A DNA stretch of 64,000 nucleotides from Escherichia phage vB_EcoM_JB75, in sequence record MH355584.1. The stretch is one strand, 5' to 3'. Below the pieces are notes generated by a model. It did not search any database. It was not told the origin of the DNA and worked only from the letters and a program-made list of their open reading frames with translations. A program made the position numbers and the translations under genes. Positions 8,991 through 19,158 of this stretch are shown here, piece after piece. The first letter of the stretch is position 1. Each line of letters opens with the position of its first letter.

Positions 8991-9647
8991 TTATTTAGCC
9001 CTTCCTAATATTCTGGCCGCCTGAGCACATATTGATTCAAGGCGGTCATTACTTATATGATCATTTCTATACCAGTACATGGTTATCGTTCCAGCATAGA
9101 TATTATCCAAATTAAAATATGGACAACTGTACATGTAGTTTATTTCGGGAGTAGGCTTTTTAGTTGGTAAAAAAGCAAATTTTGAGTCGGAATAATAATG
9201 ACGTCCATTTAAATGAACTGTATATTCATCCATAGTTTTATCAACAGGATATCCTCCAAGTGATTTTTCAGTTATTGTTGAAGGTAATCTTCCTTCATAT
9301 GCTATAATATCAACAAAATAGTTTAAGTTTTTAGGGCGGAAAGAATACACCGCACTAAAGTCTGCCTCAGATGATATATGAACTATCTGGAGTTGTTCCA
9401 GGGCGACAGATTCAAAGCGTGCATTTCTTTCCTTTTCAATAATTTCACTATATGTTTCATACTTTGATTGCTTATAGTACTCAAAGAAACTATCTCCCCT
9501 ATACCAAACAATCGCCATCATAAATAAAAGAATTACGACAGCTACTCGGGAAGCAAGAACCTTCCCGGTAGCGTTATCTTTGAACAAGCGATCTAGAACA
9601 CCAAACAGAATATCAGAGGGCGAAAATGATATTCTAGGTGCTGCCAT
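8991..9647 (-). CDS. t: holin T (218 aa)
   Basis: 218 aa as in the T4 holin; one N-terminal TM helix (VAVVILLFMMAIVWY) and a large periplasmic domain; follows gene 38 on the same strand. Confidence 0.88.
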   Translation of the reverse strand: MAAPRISFSPSDILFGVLDRLFKDNATGKVLASRVAVVILLFMMAIVWYRGDSFFEYYKQSKYETYSEIIEKERNARFESVALEQLQIVHISSEADFSAVYSFRPKNLNYFVDIIAYEGRLPSTITEKSLGGYPVDKTMDEYTVHLNGRHYYSDSKFAFLPTKKPTPEINYMYSCPYFNLDNIYAGTITMYWYRNDHISNDRLESICAQAARILGRAK

Positions 9648-9677: not shown

Positions 9678-10460
9678 TTATACTCTTGGACCATATATTG
9701 CTCCAACATTTTGCCACGTTGGAGCAGACCCTATGACAGCATAACCAGCAGCGCCGCCATTATATTCAGATCCTTGACCGCGAATATTGCATCTACCTCC
9801 CGCGGAACCTACTTCACCACCGTTTCCACCATTATAGATACCATTCACGGATCCTGAGCCAGGTGCAGAAATAGTACCAGCAGTTGCGCCTGATTGCATA
9901 TCAATAGATCCGCCAGGTGCACCAAACGGACGCCCACCACCACCGCCAAAGGTTAATCTCATTTGTGAAAAAGGAGAATAATATCCGCCGCCACCGCCAC
10001 CGCCACCGCCAGCAATAGCTCCACCATTATTAATTCTTAGTCTCCCACCAATATCGTTTTGAATACAATGACCTCCAGCTGAGCCAGGACTATTGCTACC
10101 ACCATTACCGCCACGTCCATACATCGTTACGCCATGTATATTTAACTGAACATATTCATTTGGTGTATCTCCGTACATGAAGAATAAAGGAACATCTTTA
10201 GAATATGATACTAAATCACCTGTAATATTAAACACTATAGGTGCACTACCTGCCTCAAAACATCTATCTCGGAACCACTGACCATTAAAATTGTGGTTTG
10301 CTGTTACGGTATGAATAATCTCTTTTGAGCGTCCGGCGAATTGGCTCATCCAGCAAGGAACACCCAATCTTAATTGACCAGCCGCTTGACTCATCCATCG
10401 TTGTCCTGTTTCATTTACGGATGAACTACCAATCCAACCAGGAACACCAACTACTGCCAT
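9678..10460 (-). CDS. 38: tail-fibre tip adhesin gp38, T2-type (260 aa)
   Basis: Downstream of gene 37; conserved N-terminus [13 protein letters not shown] followed by glycine-rich blocks ([18 protein letters not shown]) typical of T2-like gp38; much longer than the 183 aa T4-type gp38. Confidence 0.85.
9986..10011 (-). repeat. GC-rich hexamer-like repeat encoding the poly-Gly tract of gp38
   Basis: ccgccgccaccgccaccgccaccgcc on the + strand encodes nine consecutive Gly in gp38. Confidence 0.8.
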
Positions 10461-10474
10461 AATTTATCTCCAAA

Positions 10475-10490
10475 GGGGGCGTTGCCCCTT
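10475..10490 (-). terminator. hairpin between genes 37 and 38
   Basis: GGGGCGTTGCCCC hairpin in the 34 nt gap between 37 and 38. Confidence 0.45.
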
Positions 10491-10494
10491 GTTG

Positions 10495-13443
10495 TTAGAA
10501 TTTAAAATATTTACTAATTTTGCGAGTAATTTTAGTAAAGAAAGGAGTTTTCAATTCTTTAATTTCTTCGCTCATTTCTTGGATAGCCTTAATTAAAAGA
10601 GCATTTACAGCGGAGTTAGAAATTGTCAGAACATCAGATCCATCAACTTCAACTTTAGATACAGCTTCCGGTAATTCCTTTTCAAGGTCCTGAGCAATAA
10701 TACCAACTTCACGTTTAATAACACTACGGTCTTTAATAGACTTAACTTTATCGTAAATATAAACTTTCAGTCGACATACTTTTTCAAGTGCTCCGTTTTC
10801 TAGCTCTTTTTTATTAATCTTAAGACGACCATCGGAACGAATATACACATCGTTAAAGTTACCATTACCAGGAGAATAGAAAGTACCGTCGTAATGAAAT
10901 TCAAATACCGCGTTAGGGTGTCCAGCCGCTGGCGATGCCTCTGCAGATCCAACACGAATAATTGCTTGCCCCCAATTGTTAGGGACACGACGAATACCAA
11001 GATCGACGGCAGTTACAAACCCTTGATTGGTGATTACACTTTTTCCTTTAATAATTGGATAATAACAATCCTGTGAAACATAACCATGATCGACGAATAA
11101 TGGAGCTTCTACTCGCCATTGGTTGCCCCAATCACCCGGTTGTCTAGCAATCCATCCAGAACCGTTAATGTGTACACGATCGCGGTTAACGTTAACCATT
11201 GCGATATTTTGTGGATTTAGCGAAATCTCACCATTGTTTGTGATATGTACTGCCGCCTGAGTAGCATAGCTATAAAATGCTAGCGAATTATCAGCACCAC
11301 CCTTGCCAATATACCAGTTACCAGCCCCGTCTATGTCACCGCGAATATGCAAAGAATTACTAGCAGTTGTTGATAATACGATAGAATCATTAGGTGCATT
11401 GATTGTTAACCGACCTGTCATCGTATCACCGCCTTTACCTAGGCGAGTATTCAAGGCAGCATCTAAATTGGTTGCATCGTTGTATTTCTTCCAGATTGAA
11501 CCAGCAATGTTACCATCAGTGTTCAAGAATGCTGCGCCAGCATAAACTCGGCTTTGTGACATGAATCGGCCAGACGGCAAGAAACGCCATATAGCTAATT
11601 CAGTGGCTGTAGTTCCAGTAGCGGATAAATCACCCTGAGCAACGATACGATATTCTGAACTAGCAATATCCATACCAGAAGCCATAGTAATATTTGTTAC
11701 AGTGTTTTTCTGTTTAACAATTGGCGCAAACTGGTTTTTATTTGAATCGTCAATGGCCTGATATAATGGTGCAATGGTAGTATTCTGATTCGCGTAAGTA
11801 TTAGAACCAGAACCGCTAGCAGGGGCTTGAATATATGCTCCTGGAGCAAGTGAAATTTTCTGATTAGCACCAAGATTAACAGCAGCAGTGATATTCAACA
11901 ATCCCCTAAAGTTTTGTTGAGCAGTCCAAGTATGTGATCCATCTTCAAGAACAACACGGCGAACTGTGCAAGTTCTATTTCCAGAATTACCGAACACACG
12001 AACGACAAAATAACGATAGTTTGTCTGGGATACAGTTCCACGCCAAACCTGAACAGTACGTCCTGTGCTGGTGTGCTCGCTAGGACCAACAGAAAACATA
12101 ATTAAGTTTCCGTCAATCGTGCCCCAATTCATATTAGCTGGCATGTTCTTTATTTTGTTCAAAGGAACGCTAAACATACTACCAGGAACAAAATCAAATG
12201 TTTGCCAATCTAGCTCCGCTAATTGAGTTTTAATACCACCCATACCTAAAGTAATTGGCAGAGAGTAAGATGTATATACTTCGTTCCATGCACCCCACAC
12301 ACCACCAGTATATGCACGCTCAAAAATACGATCGCGAGTAGTTGCACCCGTTCCGGCAGTAGTAAATTTTTGGAAAATAGCACCGCCAGAAGCACGTTGT
12401 TTAACTTCCAGCAAACCAACAATAACAGTCGGCAAACCTTCACCTGTAGGACAGTTAATAACGGCATCAGTGCCTAAAATATTATATAACCCAGGGGTTT
12501 TAAAATCATTCAGATCTCCGTCATAGAAAGTCGCTGGTGTGACATTACCGACTTGTTGCCACGGTCCCCATTTAGGCGCGGAAGCATCCCACGCGGCAGC
12601 AAGACAACGAGTATATACAACACCAAATCTGGTTGTATATCTTTGTGTACGAGAATAGTTTCCACCTTCATATACTTCCAAAAGACCTTGAGCTGACGAC
12701 CCCTCTTCTGGGAAATTTCTGTCAAAGGTAGCAATGGAATTTGAACTATTTCGCCACAAACCAAAGTGTTCAGCGCCTCCTAGATCATTAAGATCAATTG
12801 TTGTTGACAGTGGACGAGTACCGGATTGAATATTTCGCCACACACTCCACGGACCATTTACTCCGTTCCATGTAGCAGTCAAGGAACGAATATAAACATT
12901 TCCGTATCTAGTTGTATATCTCTGAGTACCAGCAAATTGACCGGCCACAAATACTTCTAGCACACCTACAGCATTTTCTTCTGGAAATTTATTTGCTGGT
13001 TGAGCGTTGGTTGAAGTTGCTTTCGACCAAACTCCAAGATATTCTTCAACAGGCCCATACGTATCTAAATTAGCATCAACAGGTAATTCGCCATTATTTT
13101 TTATAAACGTTGTGCTATTGACATTTATGTCAGATGGAGTTAGCGTGATATCTTTTGACCCATCAAAGGATATACCATTAATTTTTCGTGCTGTTTTTAA
13201 TTTCGTTGCAGTTGCAGCGTTACCTGTTAAATTTCCAATTATATTTCCATTAACAGTTAAAGAACCATCAATTGTTCCTCCATATTTTAAACCTAATTCT
13301 ATAACACTGCCTGAGTCATCTTTTGTGAAAATTGTTTTATCTTTTAAGTTTATAGCCAATTCACCTTCGGCTAATACTGAAGCAGCAGGACGTTGACCTG
13401 CAGTTTTGCTTCTTTTAAATTGTATTTGTTTTAAAGTAGCCAT
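10495..13443 (-). CDS. 37: long tail fibre distal subunit gp37 (982 aa)
   Basis: Large ORF between 36 and 38; N-terminus [35 protein letters not shown] is the conserved 34/37 fibre N-terminal motif. Confidence 0.9.
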
Positions 13444-13451
13444 AAGTCCTC

Positions 13452-14102
13452 TTAATAATAGCCGAAATCTTGAACAGAATCCTTAATTACGATTTGGTCA
13501 AATCGTGGAACGTGTGAAGGTTGAGATGCAGGATTCTGTGAAAAAAGGTTTGGCGCAGTTAAATTTCCTGTCATAGTGTCTCCAGAGCGTAATACCCTAG
13601 AGTTTGCATTTGCTGTAACAGTATTTATTGCTCCATCAACATAATCTTTGCGAGTAACATCAGATGCTGCGGAAGGAGTAGATGTAACAGTTACAGATGG
13701 AGCCGTTACAGCTTTGGTAAATGTTGTCAAACCTTCTGGCGTAATAGTAATTTGTCCAGTAGTGATTTCACTACCTGCTGGTCTAAAACTAATACCGCCA
13801 GAAGAGCCACCAACTACAAGAGTATTACCAGTGCCGCCACCAGAACGAATTCGGATGGGGGTTTCATTATTACTTAATTGAAGATAACTATTTACCCCGT
13901 AATTAATAGTAATTGGACCGGTGTAAGTACCACCATTAGCTTTAGAAACGAAATCGTTATCAGCTGCCTGCGGTTTATTATATTCTGAATATATTTTAAA
14001 TGATTTGTAGAGTACATCGTCACCGGCTGAATTCAATGGAAAATTTCCTTGATGCCAAATGACAGATCCACCTACAGTTGAACCTACTTTTAAATCAGCC
14101 AT
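13452..14102 (-). CDS. 36: long tail fibre distal connector gp36 (216 aa)
   Basis: Synteny (35-36-37), length close to T4 gp36 (221 aa), late promoter upstream. Confidence 0.82.
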
Positions 14103-14164: not shown

Positions 14165-15280
14165 TTAAACTTCTCTAAATTCCTGTCCAAACACTTTGCC
14201 AGTTTTAGAAGAGGCTTGTGTAGGAAGTACCATTATATCTGGAGGTGAAGCCGATTCACAGACATAATTAACGCGAATACCGTTGACGCCAAATTCGGCA
14301 GGTTTTGAAATGCCGCCATTTCTTGATACTTCAGAAAAACTTAAATTTCTCATGCCGCCTTGACCTGCTTGAGCAGTTCTTTGTGCATATATCGTAAATC
14401 CTACGGCGTTTTCTGGAACAACTACATAGTCTTCTTTTAATTCCCAAGACCCAGCTTGCCCAGTAAACTCAGCTTGGGTCGAGGAAATATATCCATTTGA
14501 TGCATCATAAAAACGAATGGATATGTTTGTAGTTCCAAGATCAAGTAAATCAGCATCAGCATATAACTGTGCTTTAAGATAAAGAACATCACCAGGAATT
14601 AAATTATAGTCAGAAAGTTTACTTATAGCAGCTGAAGTTGGCAATCGCGCAATTTCGTTATTAGTTCCACCAACTGCTGACATGAATTGCTCGACACTTT
14701 CATAAGTTCTTTTTGGAAATCCTGTCGCTCCGACGTCTTCTAAACTATCAAATACAACATCTAAAATAGTTTGATAATCATCTGTGCTTTTTCTATTACT
14801 TAGTTTAACATGCTCTAATGCAATAGCTCTTTTAGAAGAAGTATAAAAAGCAGCATATGATACGTCAAATCTTGACAATACTGAATCTGATGGAAAAACT
14901 GAAGTTCCTGTTCCCCTTAACCAAGATACCACTTCAGGAGGAAAATTAACCTTTCCGCTAGTTAATATAGCAACAAGTCTATTGTTTGACAAAGAATTCA
15001 TGAAACTGACAAAAGCGGCAGATGTTGTATTGTTTGAAGCAGAAAAAGCATATGACTTGCTATCAACTAATGCTCCCGTAGAAGGGTCAAAAACTCTTAA
15101 ATGAAGACCTGCACTAAATGTTTGATTTCCAACGGGATTATCCTGAAATTTAACATATGGCCCCGCAGTAGAAAGCGGGCAAGAACCCGCTATGCTTATT
15201 TTATATCTTACTGAATTGCTTTCCGATAAAAATGGCGTTTGGACATATCCTTGTCCAAACTCTGCCATAAATTTTTCCAT
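14165..15280 (-). CDS. 35: long tail fibre hinge protein gp35 (371 aa)
   Basis: Synteny and length (T4 gp35 372 aa). Confidence 0.82.
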   Translation of the reverse strand: MEKFMAEFGQGYVQTPFLSESNSVRYKISIAGSCPLSTAGPYVKFQDNPVGNQTFSAGLHLRVFDPSTGALVDSKSYAFSASNNTTSAAFVSFMNSLSNNRLVAILTSGKVNFPPEVVSWLRGTGTSVFPSDSVLSRFDVSYAAFYTSSKRAIALEHVKLSNRKSTDDYQTILDVVFDSLEDVGATGFPKRTYESVEQFMSAVGGTNNEIARLPTSAAISKLSDYNLIPGDVLYLKAQLYADADLLDLGTTNISIRFYDASNGYISSTQAEFTGQAGSWELKEDYVVVPENAVGFTIYAQRTAQAGQGGMRNLSFSEVSRNGGISKPAEFGVNGIRVNYVCESASPPDIMVLPTQASSKTGKVFGQEFREV

Positions 15281-15288
15281 AATACCTC

Positions 15289-18200
15289 TTATTCAATCCA
15301 CTCAAATTTAACAGTTTTATTCACTGGGTCAGGAATAATGCGAACATTACCAATTCGCAAGAAATCGCGAATAGTAAGATTACCTATTATTCCATTATCA
15401 GATGGGATCGCTCCTATATCTGAAGGTTGAGGAGGGTTACCTCCGTCAAATACCTGAACAAAACTTGACCAAGAGTTTTTGGTTTTCTGCCATGTACGTG
15501 TCCAGCGAGTGGTACGTGCTTCTGGGGTCGTTGGATAAGTAATCCAATCTTGGTAAAGTGAATCAAGTGTGTTACCAAACTGAGTCAATGTACCAGGAGA
15601 TTTAACTTCTTCGCCACGTTCTAAATATGGAAGACCAGTCACTTCATTAGTTTTTTCAACCATTTTAAAATAACCAGGGAATTGATTATAAGTGGCTGAA
15701 TCATTAATATCAATTGACCAGAATCCTACTGTATCAGATGTTGGTGCGCGAGTGTATAAATCAGAAGTTTTAGTACCTTGAGAACGAATTCTCGAGTTAA
15801 CAGTTAAACCGCCTGAACTTATAGTAGCACCTTTTGCAATGATTAAGCTTTCACCAATTGTAACCTGACCAGATTGATTATTAATTGATACTGGACGTAA
15901 TCCATTAAATCCACCAGTCTGATCACCCGATGCAGTAAGCATAAAATTCGTTACTGATCCATCATTGCGAACAATGAAACCATAATTTCCGTTAATAGCA
16001 CGGAAAGCATTTGCGCTTCGAGAAATAATTTCACCAGTTGCAGTGACTGAATTACCAAATGTTGCTACACCATTTGCATTCAATGTTCCTGAAGCATTAA
16101 CATTTATCGGTGTTACTGTACCGTTGATATTAAATGTTATATTTCCAGCTTTATTACGCTGAGAATAAAAATGACTAGACGTTTCATCACTAACTTCAAA
16201 TACGGTAGAACGTGTTGTGTCTGATTCCCCGCTAAATTGATTTCCCCACACTCTGACTGTCATCGTTTGAGCCGGGTTTGTTCCAGTTTGAGGTCCTTTC
16301 TCAAAAATCAGACGAGTTGCCGTTCCAGTATTAGAAATAGTTAATGTACTATTTGCTGAAACTGATCCACCGAATGTAGCAGTACTAGATGATACAAGAG
16401 GGGCACCCAGATTCGTTTGTTGGGTTAAGGTTAGTGAACCATTAACTGTTTGTGCAATGTCCCTACGAATGAACTGGAGCGAATCTAGACCATCTAATAA
16501 ATTACTATCTACGGCTTTTGCTTTTAATGGCAAATAATTTGCTAATACGCGATTTAATTCATATGGTGATACTGCATAACCATTTTTCTCATATGATTCT
16601 AATGGCTGTGTTGAACCAGCTGTATCATTACCAACGAATGTAATTGAACCAGACGAAGTTTTAACAAAACCTCTTATCGCAGTAGTCGCTGCCCAAGTAG
16701 GTTCACTCTGCACAATCCATTTTAAATTTTTTGGAGATACAGCAGTATTTGCTGACGTTCCAGCTACAGTTTCAGATCGAGTTGCAACTTTAATAACGCC
16801 TTCCTGTGCTTCAGTAGATTTAGTACCTAAAAGCTTTTTAGGAGTTATTAGAACATTATCCAATGTTCCTGCAGCAGCTTCAACTTGTGTAGCTACACGA
16901 AGTGTACCACGCTGTGTCTCATTTGCTTCAAGAATATTAAGGGTATAATGGTCCCAGAGAGTTCCTGATTCAACTAATCCAGATAGAGCAACAACAGAAG
17001 TACGATCAGTACTATTAAATCTGGTTTTAATTTTTAATGGTGTAGAGATACGAGTATCGTCGACGCCTGCGTCGAATTCAACTTGCGTAGCAATTTCAGC
17101 TATACCACTTAAACTTTCAGTTGCTCTACGGTCATTTAAAGTTTTAGGAGTGACTGCGCGAGTATAATCAGTTCCTGTATTAACTTCGCTTTGCGTAGCA
17201 ATTTCAATTAAACCAATTCTTCCATCAGTTGATGTCTTTTTATGTAACGTTTCTGGTGTTACAACCGCATTTGCCCATCCTTCTTGGCTTTGTCCAGCAA
17301 TTACTTCACTTTCAACTGCTAAAATTACTGCGCCTTGTTGCGTTGGAGTAGCTTTATACTGATCCAAAGCTTTAGGTGAAACAACTAAATTATTAGTGTT
17401 TTTATTATAAACATTCGTACCATTTAATTCACGACTAGAAGCTGGAGTAGCTCCTGCGGTAGATACAAAAGTTACAATACCAGATAATGATTCAGAACCT
17501 TGGCGAGCTTGAAGCTTTTTAGGAGTAATGATTGTAGTATCATCAGTACCTGTATTAGTTTCCTGCTGCGTAGCAATTTCAGCGACACCTCTGCGAGTTT
17601 CTGTAGCAGTTCTTTCATTCAGCTTTTTAGGAGTGATGATAAGGTCATCTGCAAAAGAGAATGTGGTGTTCTGATTTACTTGAGCAGTAGTTGCTATTCT
17701 TGCAATACCTCTGCGAGTTTCAGTAGCAGTACGATTAGCTAACGTTTCTGGAGTAATTGCTAATTCTTTTTGTGGAGAATTTTCTAAATCAGCATTTGCT
17801 TGAGCTTGTGTAGCTAAAGCAATTACGCCTAATCTTGCTCTAGTAGAATTATTTAAAGAATCGACTCTTTCAACTGTTGGAACGTTTTGCTGTACAACCC
17901 AGTATTTTCCATCAGAATCTTCTATATAAGCAAGTTGCAAAACTGGTACATAATTAGTTTCACCATTAAAAACTAATTCTTGAACTGTTACCCATTCAGC
18001 TTCAGGCGGATATTCTGAACGTTTTGGGAATTGCAGCAATTGAACTGAAGAAGCAATTTTATCTTCACCAGCAGCTTTGATTTTAACTGTTTGTCCTTTT
18101 CTCATGTAATTCATGGAAATTTTAACAGTATCACCAACAGAAATATCAGTCGGAAGCTGAAGTTCAATTGTTTGGGTTGTTCCATTATTCGCGCCAAATA

Positions 18201-19158
18201 CCATGACTTCTTCATTTGGACGAATATTTGAATTAGTTGTTATAATGCGTAAACGTGCTTTACTATCCCCGTCAAACAATCTCCACAATTTCTCATTATC
18301 GTCAAACATCAAGAAACCGTCAATCGATGTACGGCCTTCAATGGAATGAGTTCCAACTTCTTGTACTGAAGTCGTTTCATCGTATGTAGTAACAATTGTA
18401 TGATAAAGTGGATTCAGTTTATCTAAATCAACGAAATTAATAATATCGCCATGATTAGCAAATCTCGGAAGTTTAACATTAATTGGTGCAGCAGAAGTAA
18501 ATCTACGTACGATAAAATCATTAGATTGTGCTTGATACGCAGTCGATGGAGTAACAATCGCAGCTTCTCTGCTATAATCAGCAACATACATTTGCCACAA
18601 ACGATTATTAAAAATGAATATCATCTGTGACTTTGGATGAGTCATTAAAACTGAACGTACCTGTTCACCTCTAAAATTGACAATACTCTGATTTGAAGAA
18701 TTTATTTTAACCTGATTTATGCCAGGTTTTCCACCGATATCTTGAATTATTACGGTTTCTCCATCAAGCGGAGAAGGTGGTAAAGTAAACTCAATGTCAT
18801 TGCCAACTGATGTATCTACTGAAATTGCTTCTCCGGATTTTAATTGATATGGTCCAGATGATACAGTTGTATATACGGCATCAGTACGTAATGCTTTCCA
18901 ACGAATTCTATTAAAATTTCCAGCAGGTTTTGGAATATTATCCGTTGCTGCCCAAAAACGATTATTATAAATGATTACAAAATCTTTTAAATATCCACGA
19001 GTTGGATCATATTGCTGAACTGTGTTTTCTTGAATTAAGTAATCAACGTTAACACCGTCAGTTCCTACGGTACGATCAGCTAAAGCTACGTTGATTATTT
19101 TATCGCCACCTGCGTCCAGACCATCTTCTGCTCTGAACTTTCTTTTAATCTCGGCCAT
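15289..19158 (-). CDS. 34: long tail fibre proximal subunit gp34 (1289 aa)
   Basis: 1289 aa, the same length as T4 gp34; internal roughly 40 aa repeats (ITPKKL...RG...IAT); late promoter upstream. Confidence 0.9.
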   Translation of the reverse strand: MAEIKRKFRAEDGLDAGGDKIINVALADRTVGTDGVNVDYLIQENTVQQYDPTRGYLKDFVIIYNNRFWAATDNIPKPAGNFNRIRWKALRTDAVYTTVSSGPYQLKSGEAISVDTSVGNDIEFTLPPSPLDGETVIIQDIGGKPGINQVKINSSNQSIVNFRGEQVRSVLMTHPKSQMIFIFNNRLWQMYVADYSREAAIVTPSTAYQAQSNDFIVRRFTSAAPINVKLPRFANHGDIINFVDLDKLNPLYHTIVTTYDETTSVQEVGTHSIEGRTSIDGFLMFDDNEKLWRLFDGDSKARLRIITTNSNIRPNEEVMVFGANNGTTQTIELQLPTDISVGDTVKISMNYMRKGQTVKIKAAGEDKIASSVQLLQFPKRSEYPPEAEWVTVQELVFNGETNYVPVLQLAYIEDSDGKYWVVQQNVPTVERVDSLNNSTRARLGVIALATQAQANADLENSPQKELAITPETLANRTATETRRGIARIATTAQVNQNTTFSFADDLIITPKKLNERTATETRRGVAEIATQQETNTGTDDTTIITPKKLQARQGSESLSGIVTFVSTAGATPASSRELNGTNVYNKNTNNLVVSPKALDQYKATPTQQGAVILAVESEVIAGQSQEGWANAVVTPETLHKKTSTDGRIGLIEIATQSEVNTGTDYTRAVTPKTLNDRRATESLSGIAEIATQVEFDAGVDDTRISTPLKIKTRFNSTDRTSVVALSGLVESGTLWDHYTLNILEANETQRGTLRVATQVEAAAGTLDNVLITPKKLLGTKSTEAQEGVIKVATRSETVAGTSANTAVSPKNLKWIVQSEPTWAATTAIRGFVKTSSGSITFVGNDTAGSTQPLESYEKNGYAVSPYELNRVLANYLPLKAKAVDSNLLDGLDSLQFIRRDIAQTVNGSLTLTQQTNLGAPLVSSSTATFGGSVSANSTLTISNTGTATRLIFEKGPQTGTNPAQTMTVRVWGNQFSGESDTTRSTVFEVSDETSSHFYSQRNKAGNITFNINGTVTPINVNASGTLNANGVATFGNSVTATGEIISRSANAFRAINGNYGFIVRNDGSVTNFMLTASGDQTGGFNGLRPVSINNQSGQVTIGESLIIAKGATISSGGLTVNSRIRSQGTKTSDLYTRAPTSDTVGFWSIDINDSATYNQFPGYFKMVEKTNEVTGLPYLERGEEVKSPGTLTQFGNTLDSLYQDWITYPTTPEARTTRWTRTWQKTKNSWSSFVQVFDGGNPPQPSDIGAIPSDNGIIGNLTIRDFLRIGNVRIIPDPVNKTVKFEWIE
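16880..17750 (-). repeat. tandem coding repeats within gene 34
   Basis: A roughly 40 aa unit (ITPKKL...T.T.RG...IAT) recurs about seven times; DNA copies share near-identical 24 nt segments, e.g. acctctgcgagtttc(t/a)gtagcagt at about 17595 and 17710. Confidence 0.7.

Follow-up and report, generated by a model that had tools for sequence, protein, structure and literature searches.

Gene 38 of Escherichia phage vB_EcoM_JB75: a T6-subtype tail-fibre adhesin with a nine-glycine tract encoded by a tandem repeat

Introduction

What kind of protein is the glycine-rich product of gene 38 in Escherichia phage vB_EcoM_JB75, and is its run of nine glycines, encoded by repetitive DNA, a structural element, a mutational weak point or both? 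The question is raised by a stretch of 64,000 nucleotides (nt) of this phage (MH355584.1), referred to here as the window, whose positions serve as coordinates throughout. An original prediction, made from the letters of the window, had recognised in gp38 a receptor-binding adhesin with a repeat that might change in length. The analysis presented here leads to the view that gp38 is very probably an adhesin of the T6 subtype with a structural nine-glycine (Gly9) tract, which is also a mutational weak point through its repeat.

The gene family, its architecture and its role in host range are already known and are textbook matter for T-even phages, and the exact protein is already in GenBank. As regards the tract itself, no description of slippage at gp38 glycine tracts was found in the searchable literature, older subscription papers being beyond its reach, and the publication on the PYps phages, which are central to what follows, shows indels in its alignment without discussing a mechanism. 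The hot-spot behaviour of the tract is thus a modest new detail on a known system.

Identity and architecture of the gene 38 product

The window belongs to a T4-like phage genome (Tequatrovirus), with 96-97.5% identity to phages such as G2540-3 and Paracelsus over its first 25 kb. Gene 38 is an open reading frame (ORF) with an ATG start, and its product contains 61 glycines (23.5%) among 260 amino acids (aa). Both Pfam domains of the T2/T6-type adhesin family are found above their curated cut-offs of 25 bits, GP38 (PF05268) over aa 47-260 (242 bits, E=8e-72) and Gp38_N (PF21721) over aa 1-42 (70.3 bits, E=1.3e-19). Moreover, the protein matches two crystal structures, those of PP01 gp38 (9V85, aa 38-260, E=6e-77) and S16 gp38 (6F45_D, aa 5-257, E=1e-50), which settles its fold. 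The closest named relative in the protein database is T6 gp38 (261 aa, 95% aa identity), while the record of vB_EcoM_JB75 itself (AXC34037.1) is 100% identical over the 260 residues. Residues 56-260, which comprise all the glycine-rich motifs (GRMs) and all the hypervariable segments (HVSs), are those of a gp38 common to KarlGJung (QXV82067.1), fPS-65 and APTC-EC-2A (P0122). At the DNA level, the best match of gene 38 among the phage genomes compared is 97.2%.

The gp38 of T4 is an assembly chaperone of about 183 aa. The marks of that type, a short protein without GRMs or HVSs next to a gp37 without an S74 domain, are not those of the window, where the 260-aa product has the adhesin domains and gene 38 lies directly downstream of a gene 37 with an S74 chaperone domain. 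These comparisons support the assignment of the product as a T6-subtype (Tsx) gp38 adhesin, of T2 type rather than a T4-type chaperone.

The C-terminal half of the protein is organised in five GRMs that alternate with four HVSs. The fifth motif is GGAAG at aa 235-239, and the motifs are separated by non-glycine segments. In an alignment of 121 sequences, the conserved positions are those of the GRMs and the variable ones those of the HVSs; GRM3, for instance, is kept as GGGGGRPFG in 105 of 113 representatives. The restriction sites used for T6 (PMC3157838), BamHI in HVS3 and SacII in GRM4, are both present. The ORF, the motif map and this alignment agree with the original prediction of a 260-aa protein with glycine-rich motifs between variable segments. 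The alignment with gp38 relatives that it proposed for mapping the HVSs has located them and found the T2-type relation, and the choice of a T2-type adhesin over a short T4-type chaperone, upheld by Pfam, PDB and the identity to T6, can be narrowed to the T6 (Tsx) subtype.

The N-terminal attachment domain carries three tryptophans (W9, W22 and W37) within W-[IM]-[GS]-[SQ] pseudo-repeats. In S16 gp38, three conserved tryptophans plug into the gp37 trimer (PMC6851490), and the domain of the window protein should dock on the tip of its own gp37 trimer in the same way. As for that tip, Pfam Peptidase_S74 covers aa 870-928 of gp37, where S16 gp37 (chain 6F45_A) also matches; an SDGRLK motif stands at aa 870, 113 residues before the C-terminus. 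The gp37 of T2 is processed C-terminally (Drexler 1986, as cited in PMC3157838), and autocleavage of the C-terminal chaperone, exposing the tip that binds gp38, is predicted for the gp37 of the window. The fibre is of the T2/T6/S16 design and not of the T4 design.

The place of the Gly9 tract in this architecture is indicated by the S16 structure, in which the aligned run, 151-GGGGGGGG-158, is helix 3, a long central polyglycine-II (PGII) helix with hydrogen bonds from its backbone to the helices around it in a three-layer sandwich (PMC6851490). HVS2, which follows the tract, lines up with a distal receptor loop of PP01 gp38, loop B (PMC12892980). On alignment, the Gly9 tract corresponds to the central PGII helix 3 of S16, leading into loop B.

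The repeat encoding the nine glycines

On the coding strand, the tract reads (GGCGGT)x3 followed by GGC GGC GGA, and a perfect hexamer microsatellite therefore lies inside the coding sequence, as in a contingency locus. Any polyglycine tract is by necessity a period-3 repeat of GGN codons. Perfect period-6 stretches of 23 nt or more occurred in about 2% of the tracts simulated from the glycine codon usage of the gene, and in 0.8% of the permutations of the tract's own codons; the perfection of the hexamer is moderately, not overwhelmingly, non-random. The original prediction had placed an imperfect repeat for nine glycines at 9986-10011: the run is real and the coordinates hold to within 2 nt, while the word imperfect does not, since the repeat is perfect over 24 nt.

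Codon choice in the tract is also peculiar. GGC accounts for five of its nine glycine codons and for 9 of the other 52 in the gene, the genome having 35% G+C. In relatives, up to seven of the nine codons are GGC, and third positions are shuffled between close relatives, the last three codons being nearly constant as GGC GGC GGA (with GGG at the end in two relatives).

Length variants of the tract in relatives

The gapless 121-sequence alignment had first given the impression of a tract that never varies in length, a view overturned by base-by-base reading of near-identical phage records of unusual length. The clearest case is that of PYps15T and PYps14T, whose gene 38 loci (the part of these genomes that was compared) have no mismatch over 980 nt. 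The tract of PYps15T is (GGCGGCGGT)x2, or Gly9, and that of PYps14T is longer by one 9-nt unit, x3, or Gly12; a 3-nt indel of an Asn codon is the only further difference. The Gly12 allele of PYps14T is also carried by AV121, isolated in Denmark on extended-spectrum beta-lactamase (ESBL) E. coli, and by no other of the 60 best-matching phage records. In PYps32T, the 12-codon tract is the Gly9 allele of PYps47T plus one GGTGGCGGC unit, with one Gly-to-Val change.

Shorter alleles also exist. Gly7, (GGTGGC)x3+GGA, is found in two independent samples (sequencing runs), and Gly6 and Gly4 occur in other clades beside Gly9 relatives of the same HVS2 type; in D5505, one GGT has been lost from the Gly5 run of GRM3. 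Copy number thus varies by whole units among close relatives, at low frequency (about 5% of relatives). All the natural variants are in frame, the unit being a multiple of three, and there is no reversible on/off switching by frameshift. The expectation in the original prediction that the repeat could expand or contract in frame is borne out in relatives by the Gly12, Gly7, Gly6 and Gly4 alleles, rare as they are.

Two further candidates were rejected. The difference between proteins of 257 and 259 aa within protein clusters, considered as a slippage of two glycines, proved to be a two-residue difference in the N-terminal domain. The gp38 record of HP3 (RefSeq, P0128, 187 aa) has a frameshift in the tract, with Gly8 followed by out-of-frame sequence, whereas HP3.1 (P0129) has 260 aa; it was rejected as a real off-switch and taken for a probable sequencing error, given that the authors of these genomes report only two single-nucleotide polymorphisms (SNPs) between HP3 and HP3.1, neither in the glycine tract. 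Sequencing and assembly thus also seem prone to error at the tract.

Indels, duplications and homology breaks around the tract

The 92 unique sequences that share at least 80% identity with the gp38 of the window show 18 rare indel events, of which 7 begin or end within the nine-residue tract (binomial P = 1.4e-6 for a target of 9/260 residues; 1e-3 when the whole GRM2-HVS2-GRM3 region is the target). Within this set of relatives, the Gly9 tract is the indel hot spot of gene 38.

Larger rearrangements involve the adjacent loop. PYps47T and a genome from IMG/VR carry independent tandem duplications of HVS2, of 54 and 51 nt, whose junctions lie inside glycine codons and are GRM3/GRM2 hybrids, and the reciprocal deletion of HVS2 is seen in P0022 and P0023. 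These two, together with P0026 and P0111 (all Logan/ENA assemblies), lack HVS2, with GRM2 fused to GRM3, and are found on long phage contigs; in T6, deletion of HVS2 has been reported as non-viable. P0038, a 303-aa protein on a 25.7-kb contig labelled "Escherichia coli", is a chimera in which residues 1-156 of gp38 run into the glycine tract (six Gly) and continue in an unrelated fibre segment that ends in a Peptidase_S74-type motif, the junction being inside the tract.

The homology of gene 38 to other phage genomes also changes here. BLAST matches with gene 38 as the query run over nt 1-473, 1-476 or 1-480, or over 159-467, 159-476 or 159-481, and others start at 438, 442, 444 or 451, so that the breaks fall at nt 438-481, around the tract (nt 451-477). 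Such a boundary is consistent with mosaic gp38 genes joined at the tract.

A rearrangement of another kind was observed in vB_EcoM-G3F7 (MZ234035), in which 28 nt between two CTATT repeats of HVS3 (the counterpart of about window 9860-9890) are deleted. The deletion shifts the frame of gene 38, annotated there as two coding sequences for a "receptor recognizing protein"; either the variant is truly gp38-null or the assembly is at fault.

Receptor prediction and host range

T6-like adhesins recognise Tsx (PMC3157838), and the phages KarlGJung, Paracelsus and WilhelmHis have been found experimentally to use this receptor (Maffei et al., as reported in PMC13353012). The gene 38 of CM8 has 94.3% nucleotide identity to that of the window; this phage was assigned to Tsx/HepI by random barcode transposon sequencing (RB-TnSeq), and turned to OmpA after recombination with the distal half of the gp38 of EV240 (bioRxiv 10.64898/2026.04.02.716166). 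Since the specificity half of the window protein is identical to that of the Tsx-using KarlGJung, and given CM8 and the T6-like adhesins, the nucleoside porin Tsx of E. coli is predicted with high probability to be its receptor.

Some caution is needed in this prediction. The gp38 of fPS-65 has the same specificity half as that of the window, and this phage infects Y. pseudotuberculosis, with resistant mutants that map to heptose genes of the lipopolysaccharide inner core (PMC7917993). Furthermore, single changes in HVS2 or HVS3 within the T6-like clade shift receptor use towards OmpA or Yersinia (PMC3157838).

The contribution of gp38 to host range is illustrated by the complete genomes of PYps32T (MT515753, 165,733 bp) and PYps47T (MT515755, 165,778 bp), which come closest to an isogenic experiment made by nature. 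They are set apart by three changes only, a synonymous SNP (gene 24) and, within gene 38, a 45-nt indel and a Gly/Val codon of the tract. PYps32T lyses 87 of 128 Y. pseudotuberculosis strains and PYps47T 52 of 128 (PMC8762354, Table 1); for Y. pestis, the figures are 8/9 and 4/9 (PMC8762354). This pair places the host-range difference in the GRM2/HVS2 part of gp38. Together with the S74 domain of gp37 and the CM8 swap, it supports the earlier proposal that gp38, and not the tip of gp37, is the likely determinant of host range. In the NCBI taxonomy, the two phages stand in different species, PYps32T in Tequatrovirus cm8 and PYps47T in sf21, despite their near-identical genomes.

A proposed mechanism for the tract and its rivals

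The observations can be brought together in the following model. After cleavage of the C-terminal chaperone of gp37, a monomeric gp38 would cap the tip of the trimeric fibre by means of its three-tryptophan N-terminal domain, and its polyglycine-II sandwich would display four or five hypervariable loops, which in this allele most likely bind Tsx. The run of nine glycines would be a structural element, the central PGII helix that leads directly into receptor loop B, and nine would be strongly favoured as a length because of this structural role. Being encoded by tandem GGC/GGT units, the same tract would be the mutational weak point of the gene: replication slippage, or unequal exchange between GRM2 and GRM3, would add or remove whole units in frame and duplicate or delete HVS2. 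Slippage and unequal homologous exchange cannot be told apart by their products. Most length variants would presumably be purged, while some would survive in viable phages and could change host range.

Several findings weigh against this account, and some of them would suit a simpler one, considered somewhat unlikely, in which the tract is purely structural, the DNA repeat is a by-product of nine GGN codons and the variants are either rare noise, deleterious or neutral, or errors of sequencing and assembly, with no role in host range. Nine glycines are kept in about 95% of relatives (nearly all of the cluster members read) and across diverged clades, and the Gly9 length is found in 57 of the 60 top phage records. 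Across 120 cluster representatives the tract slot is nearly always A+G9 or C+G8+I, without gaps, and T6 was not viable with GRM2 deleted (PMC3157838), which points to a strong structural constraint on the tract. A search of metagenomes, IMG/VR and GTDB with the degenerate-flank pattern GGAGCTATTGCN{13,43}TATTATTCTCC returned 4 + 3 related matches, all of them Gly9, the seven being too few for allele frequencies; two further matches, in Holtiella and a Cloacimonadota metagenome-assembled genome, were discarded as chance. The period-6 perfection, as seen above, is only about 2% unlikely by chance. Gly7, the sole variant on a hexamer-type allele like that of the window, comes from metagenome-type assemblies, and some apparent tract variants may be sequencing errors, as the probable frameshift of HP3 illustrates. 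Finally, the change between PYps32T and PYps47T combines an HVS2 duplication, tract length and a Gly-to-Val replacement, and the number of glycines is not isolated in it. What speaks against mere noise is that the phages with the Gly12 allele were plaque-purified and completely sequenced, in two laboratories and two countries, that exact repeat-unit changes separate near-clonal phages such as PYps15T and PYps14T, that Gly7 appears in two independent samples, that indels are enriched at the tract well beyond expectation and that the protein differences between PYps32T and PYps47T, phages with different published host ranges, are confined to this part of gp38.

A different emphasis, with about even chances, regards the glycine-codon motifs mainly as short patches of homology for the recombination of HVS cassettes between gp38 alleles, slippage being a side effect. 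Modular shuffling of HVSs was proposed by Tetart, Desplats and Krisch (1998), as cited in PMC12032242 and PMC3157838, and is supported by the homology breaks at the tract, the hybrid GRM2/GRM3 junctions of the HVS2 duplications and deletions, the P0038 chimera joined inside the tract and the cross between CM8 and EV240, in which only the part from HVS2 onwards was exchanged (bioRxiv 10.64898/2026.04.02.716166). Nevertheless, some of the breakpoints merely mark where conserved sequence meets a hypervariable segment and are no proof of a crossover, and linkers for recombination leave one-unit changes within otherwise identical genes unexplained; the proposal is complementary to slippage or unequal exchange rather than exclusive of it. 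At the other extreme, receptor specificity in the gp37 tip, with gp38 an assembly chaperone without a place in the virion, is established for T4, of the same genus (restated in PMC6851490), and is extremely improbable here. Such a division of labour is excluded by domain content, since gp38 combines the domains of the adhesin family with a complete PGII/HVS architecture, neither being of T4 type, and gp37 carries the S74 chaperone domain in place of the T4 needle tip; moreover, in close relatives, swaps of gp38 or protein differences in gp38 only are accompanied by a change of receptor or host range. A more ambitious extension, in which the GRM2/GRM3 microsatellites are a built-in in-frame generator of diversity through which T6-type phages quickly reach new hosts such as Yersinia, which lacks Tsx, is regarded as unlikely. 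It would have slips of two to three codons, or unequal exchange, lengthen, shorten, duplicate or delete the stalk and loop B of the receptor-binding face, with selection on E. coli restoring Gly9. The tract/HVS2 length variants are over-represented among Yersinia-isolated phages (3/5, against 1/49 for those from E. coli or Shigella hosts; Fisher P = 0.0016), and all of the Yersinia variants come from one zoo, so that the excess is a lead only. The account preferred here remains that of a structural Gly9 tract in a T6-subtype adhesin, liable to mutation through its tandem repeat.

Organisation of the tail-fibre locus

Gene 38 lies in a block of long-tail-fibre genes on the minus strand, recognised from ORFs and Pfam matches, with the order 34-35-36-37-38-t. 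The positions of these genes and of the parts of gp38 are collected in Table 1.

Table 1. Features of the tail-fibre locus and of gene 38 (window positions)
Feature	Position	Strand	Basis
Gene 38, predicted T6-subtype receptor-recognising adhesin, 260 aa	9678..10460	-	ORF, Pfam, PDB, identity
N-terminal attachment domain, aa 1-42	10335..10460	-	Pfam Gp38_N
First part of beta-helix (aa 43-115) and GRM1 RGGNGG (aa 116-121)	10098..10334	-	alignment to 9V85 and 6F45
Gly9 tract, aa 151-159, GRM2 of the five-GRM scheme	9984..10010	-	aligns with S16 Gly run
Perfect hexamer microsatellite, 4.0 copies of CCGCCA (+ strand)	9988..10011	.	Tandem Repeats Finder, period 6, 100% matches
HVS2, aa 160-171, equivalent of PP01 distal receptor loop B	9948..9983	-	alignment to 9V85
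GRM3, aa 172-184, second Gly-codon tract, exchanging unequally with GRM2	9909..9947	-	motif map, relatives
HVS3 (aa 185-210), GRM4 (aa 211-222) and HVS4 (aa 223-234), remaining specificity loops and motif	9759..9908	-	
Gene 37, distal half-fibre, 982 aa, tip bears gp38	10495..13443	-	ORF; Pfam gp37_trimer, Peptidase_S74; gene order
gp37 C-terminal intramolecular chaperone region, about aa 868-982	10498..10842	-	Pfam Peptidase_S74, 6F45_A match
Gene 34	15289-19158	-	
Gene 35	14165-15280	-	
Gene 36	13452-14102	-	
Holin t	8991-9647	-	

The gp37 of the window is only 88.6% identical (870/982 residues) to that of PYps32T, against 97% for the gp38 proteins, which suggests different histories for the distal fibre shaft and the adhesin. 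In the intergenic region between genes 37 and 38 (10461-10494), a G+C-rich inverted repeat, GGGGC-N6-GCCCC, stands just upstream of the Shine-Dalgarno sequence of gene 38. As a structure, this hairpin (about 10468-10486) was rejected, its stability not exceeding that of shuffled sequence (z = -0.27); a search for terminator-like sites gave none in the region.

Significance and comparison with known systems

For annotation, the value of the analysis lies in a specific and well-supported receptor prediction, Tsx on E. coli K-12-like hosts, which would be read through gp38 and not through gp37, with a known potential to reach Yersinia, since fPS-65 carries the same specificity half. In addition, length changes in gp38 are unevenly spread and concentrate at one glycine-codon repeat and the adjacent loop, so that window 9909-10010 offers phage-therapy engineers and those who predict host ranges a small region to monitor for drift during production, to recode for stability or to vary for new specificities.

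The nearest known systems are the T6-type proteins themselves. The gp38 of T6, RB5, KarlGJung, Paracelsus, WilhelmHis, CM8 and JB75, all of them Tsx-type adhesins, show 95-100% aa identity to that of the window, with the same length class (260-261 aa) and order of GRMs and HVSs, and their gene is likewise flanked by gene 37 and holin t. The protein of JB75 shows no difference from that of the window; those of KarlGJung and fPS-65 have identical HVS1-4, and KarlGJung differs by S14A, V15A, K46R, V52L, T53G and N55D, in the N-terminal and beta-helix part. At a greater distance, the gp38 of the Salmonella phage S16 (6F45) and of the E. coli O157 phage PP01 (9V85) have the same attachment domain, beta-helix and polyglycine-II sandwich, with the S16 helix 3 in register with Gly9 and the PP01 loop B with HVS2. 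However, their loops are wholly different and bind OmpC, and their tracts have eight glycines followed by F or Y, where the window protein has nine.

As regards the changes in length, a likeness exists with the host-range duplications in gp37 of T4 (Tetart et al. 1996, as cited in PMC3157838), in which short repeats mediate the in-frame duplication of a receptor segment, with consequences for host range in T4; the HVS2 duplications of PYps47T and of the IMG/VR contig may be compared with them. The T4 duplications differ in affecting a trimeric gp37 tip through His-box repeats, and the comparison is drawn from the cited literature. With the simple-sequence contingency loci of bacteria, gene 38 shares a coding tandem repeat that varies among near-clonal isolates in a gene for surface recognition. 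In contrast to those loci, its unit is a multiple of three, giving graded changes in frame and not on/off switching, and its variants are rare, with one length dominant. The result is thus a refinement of a well-studied system, and not a new kind of system.

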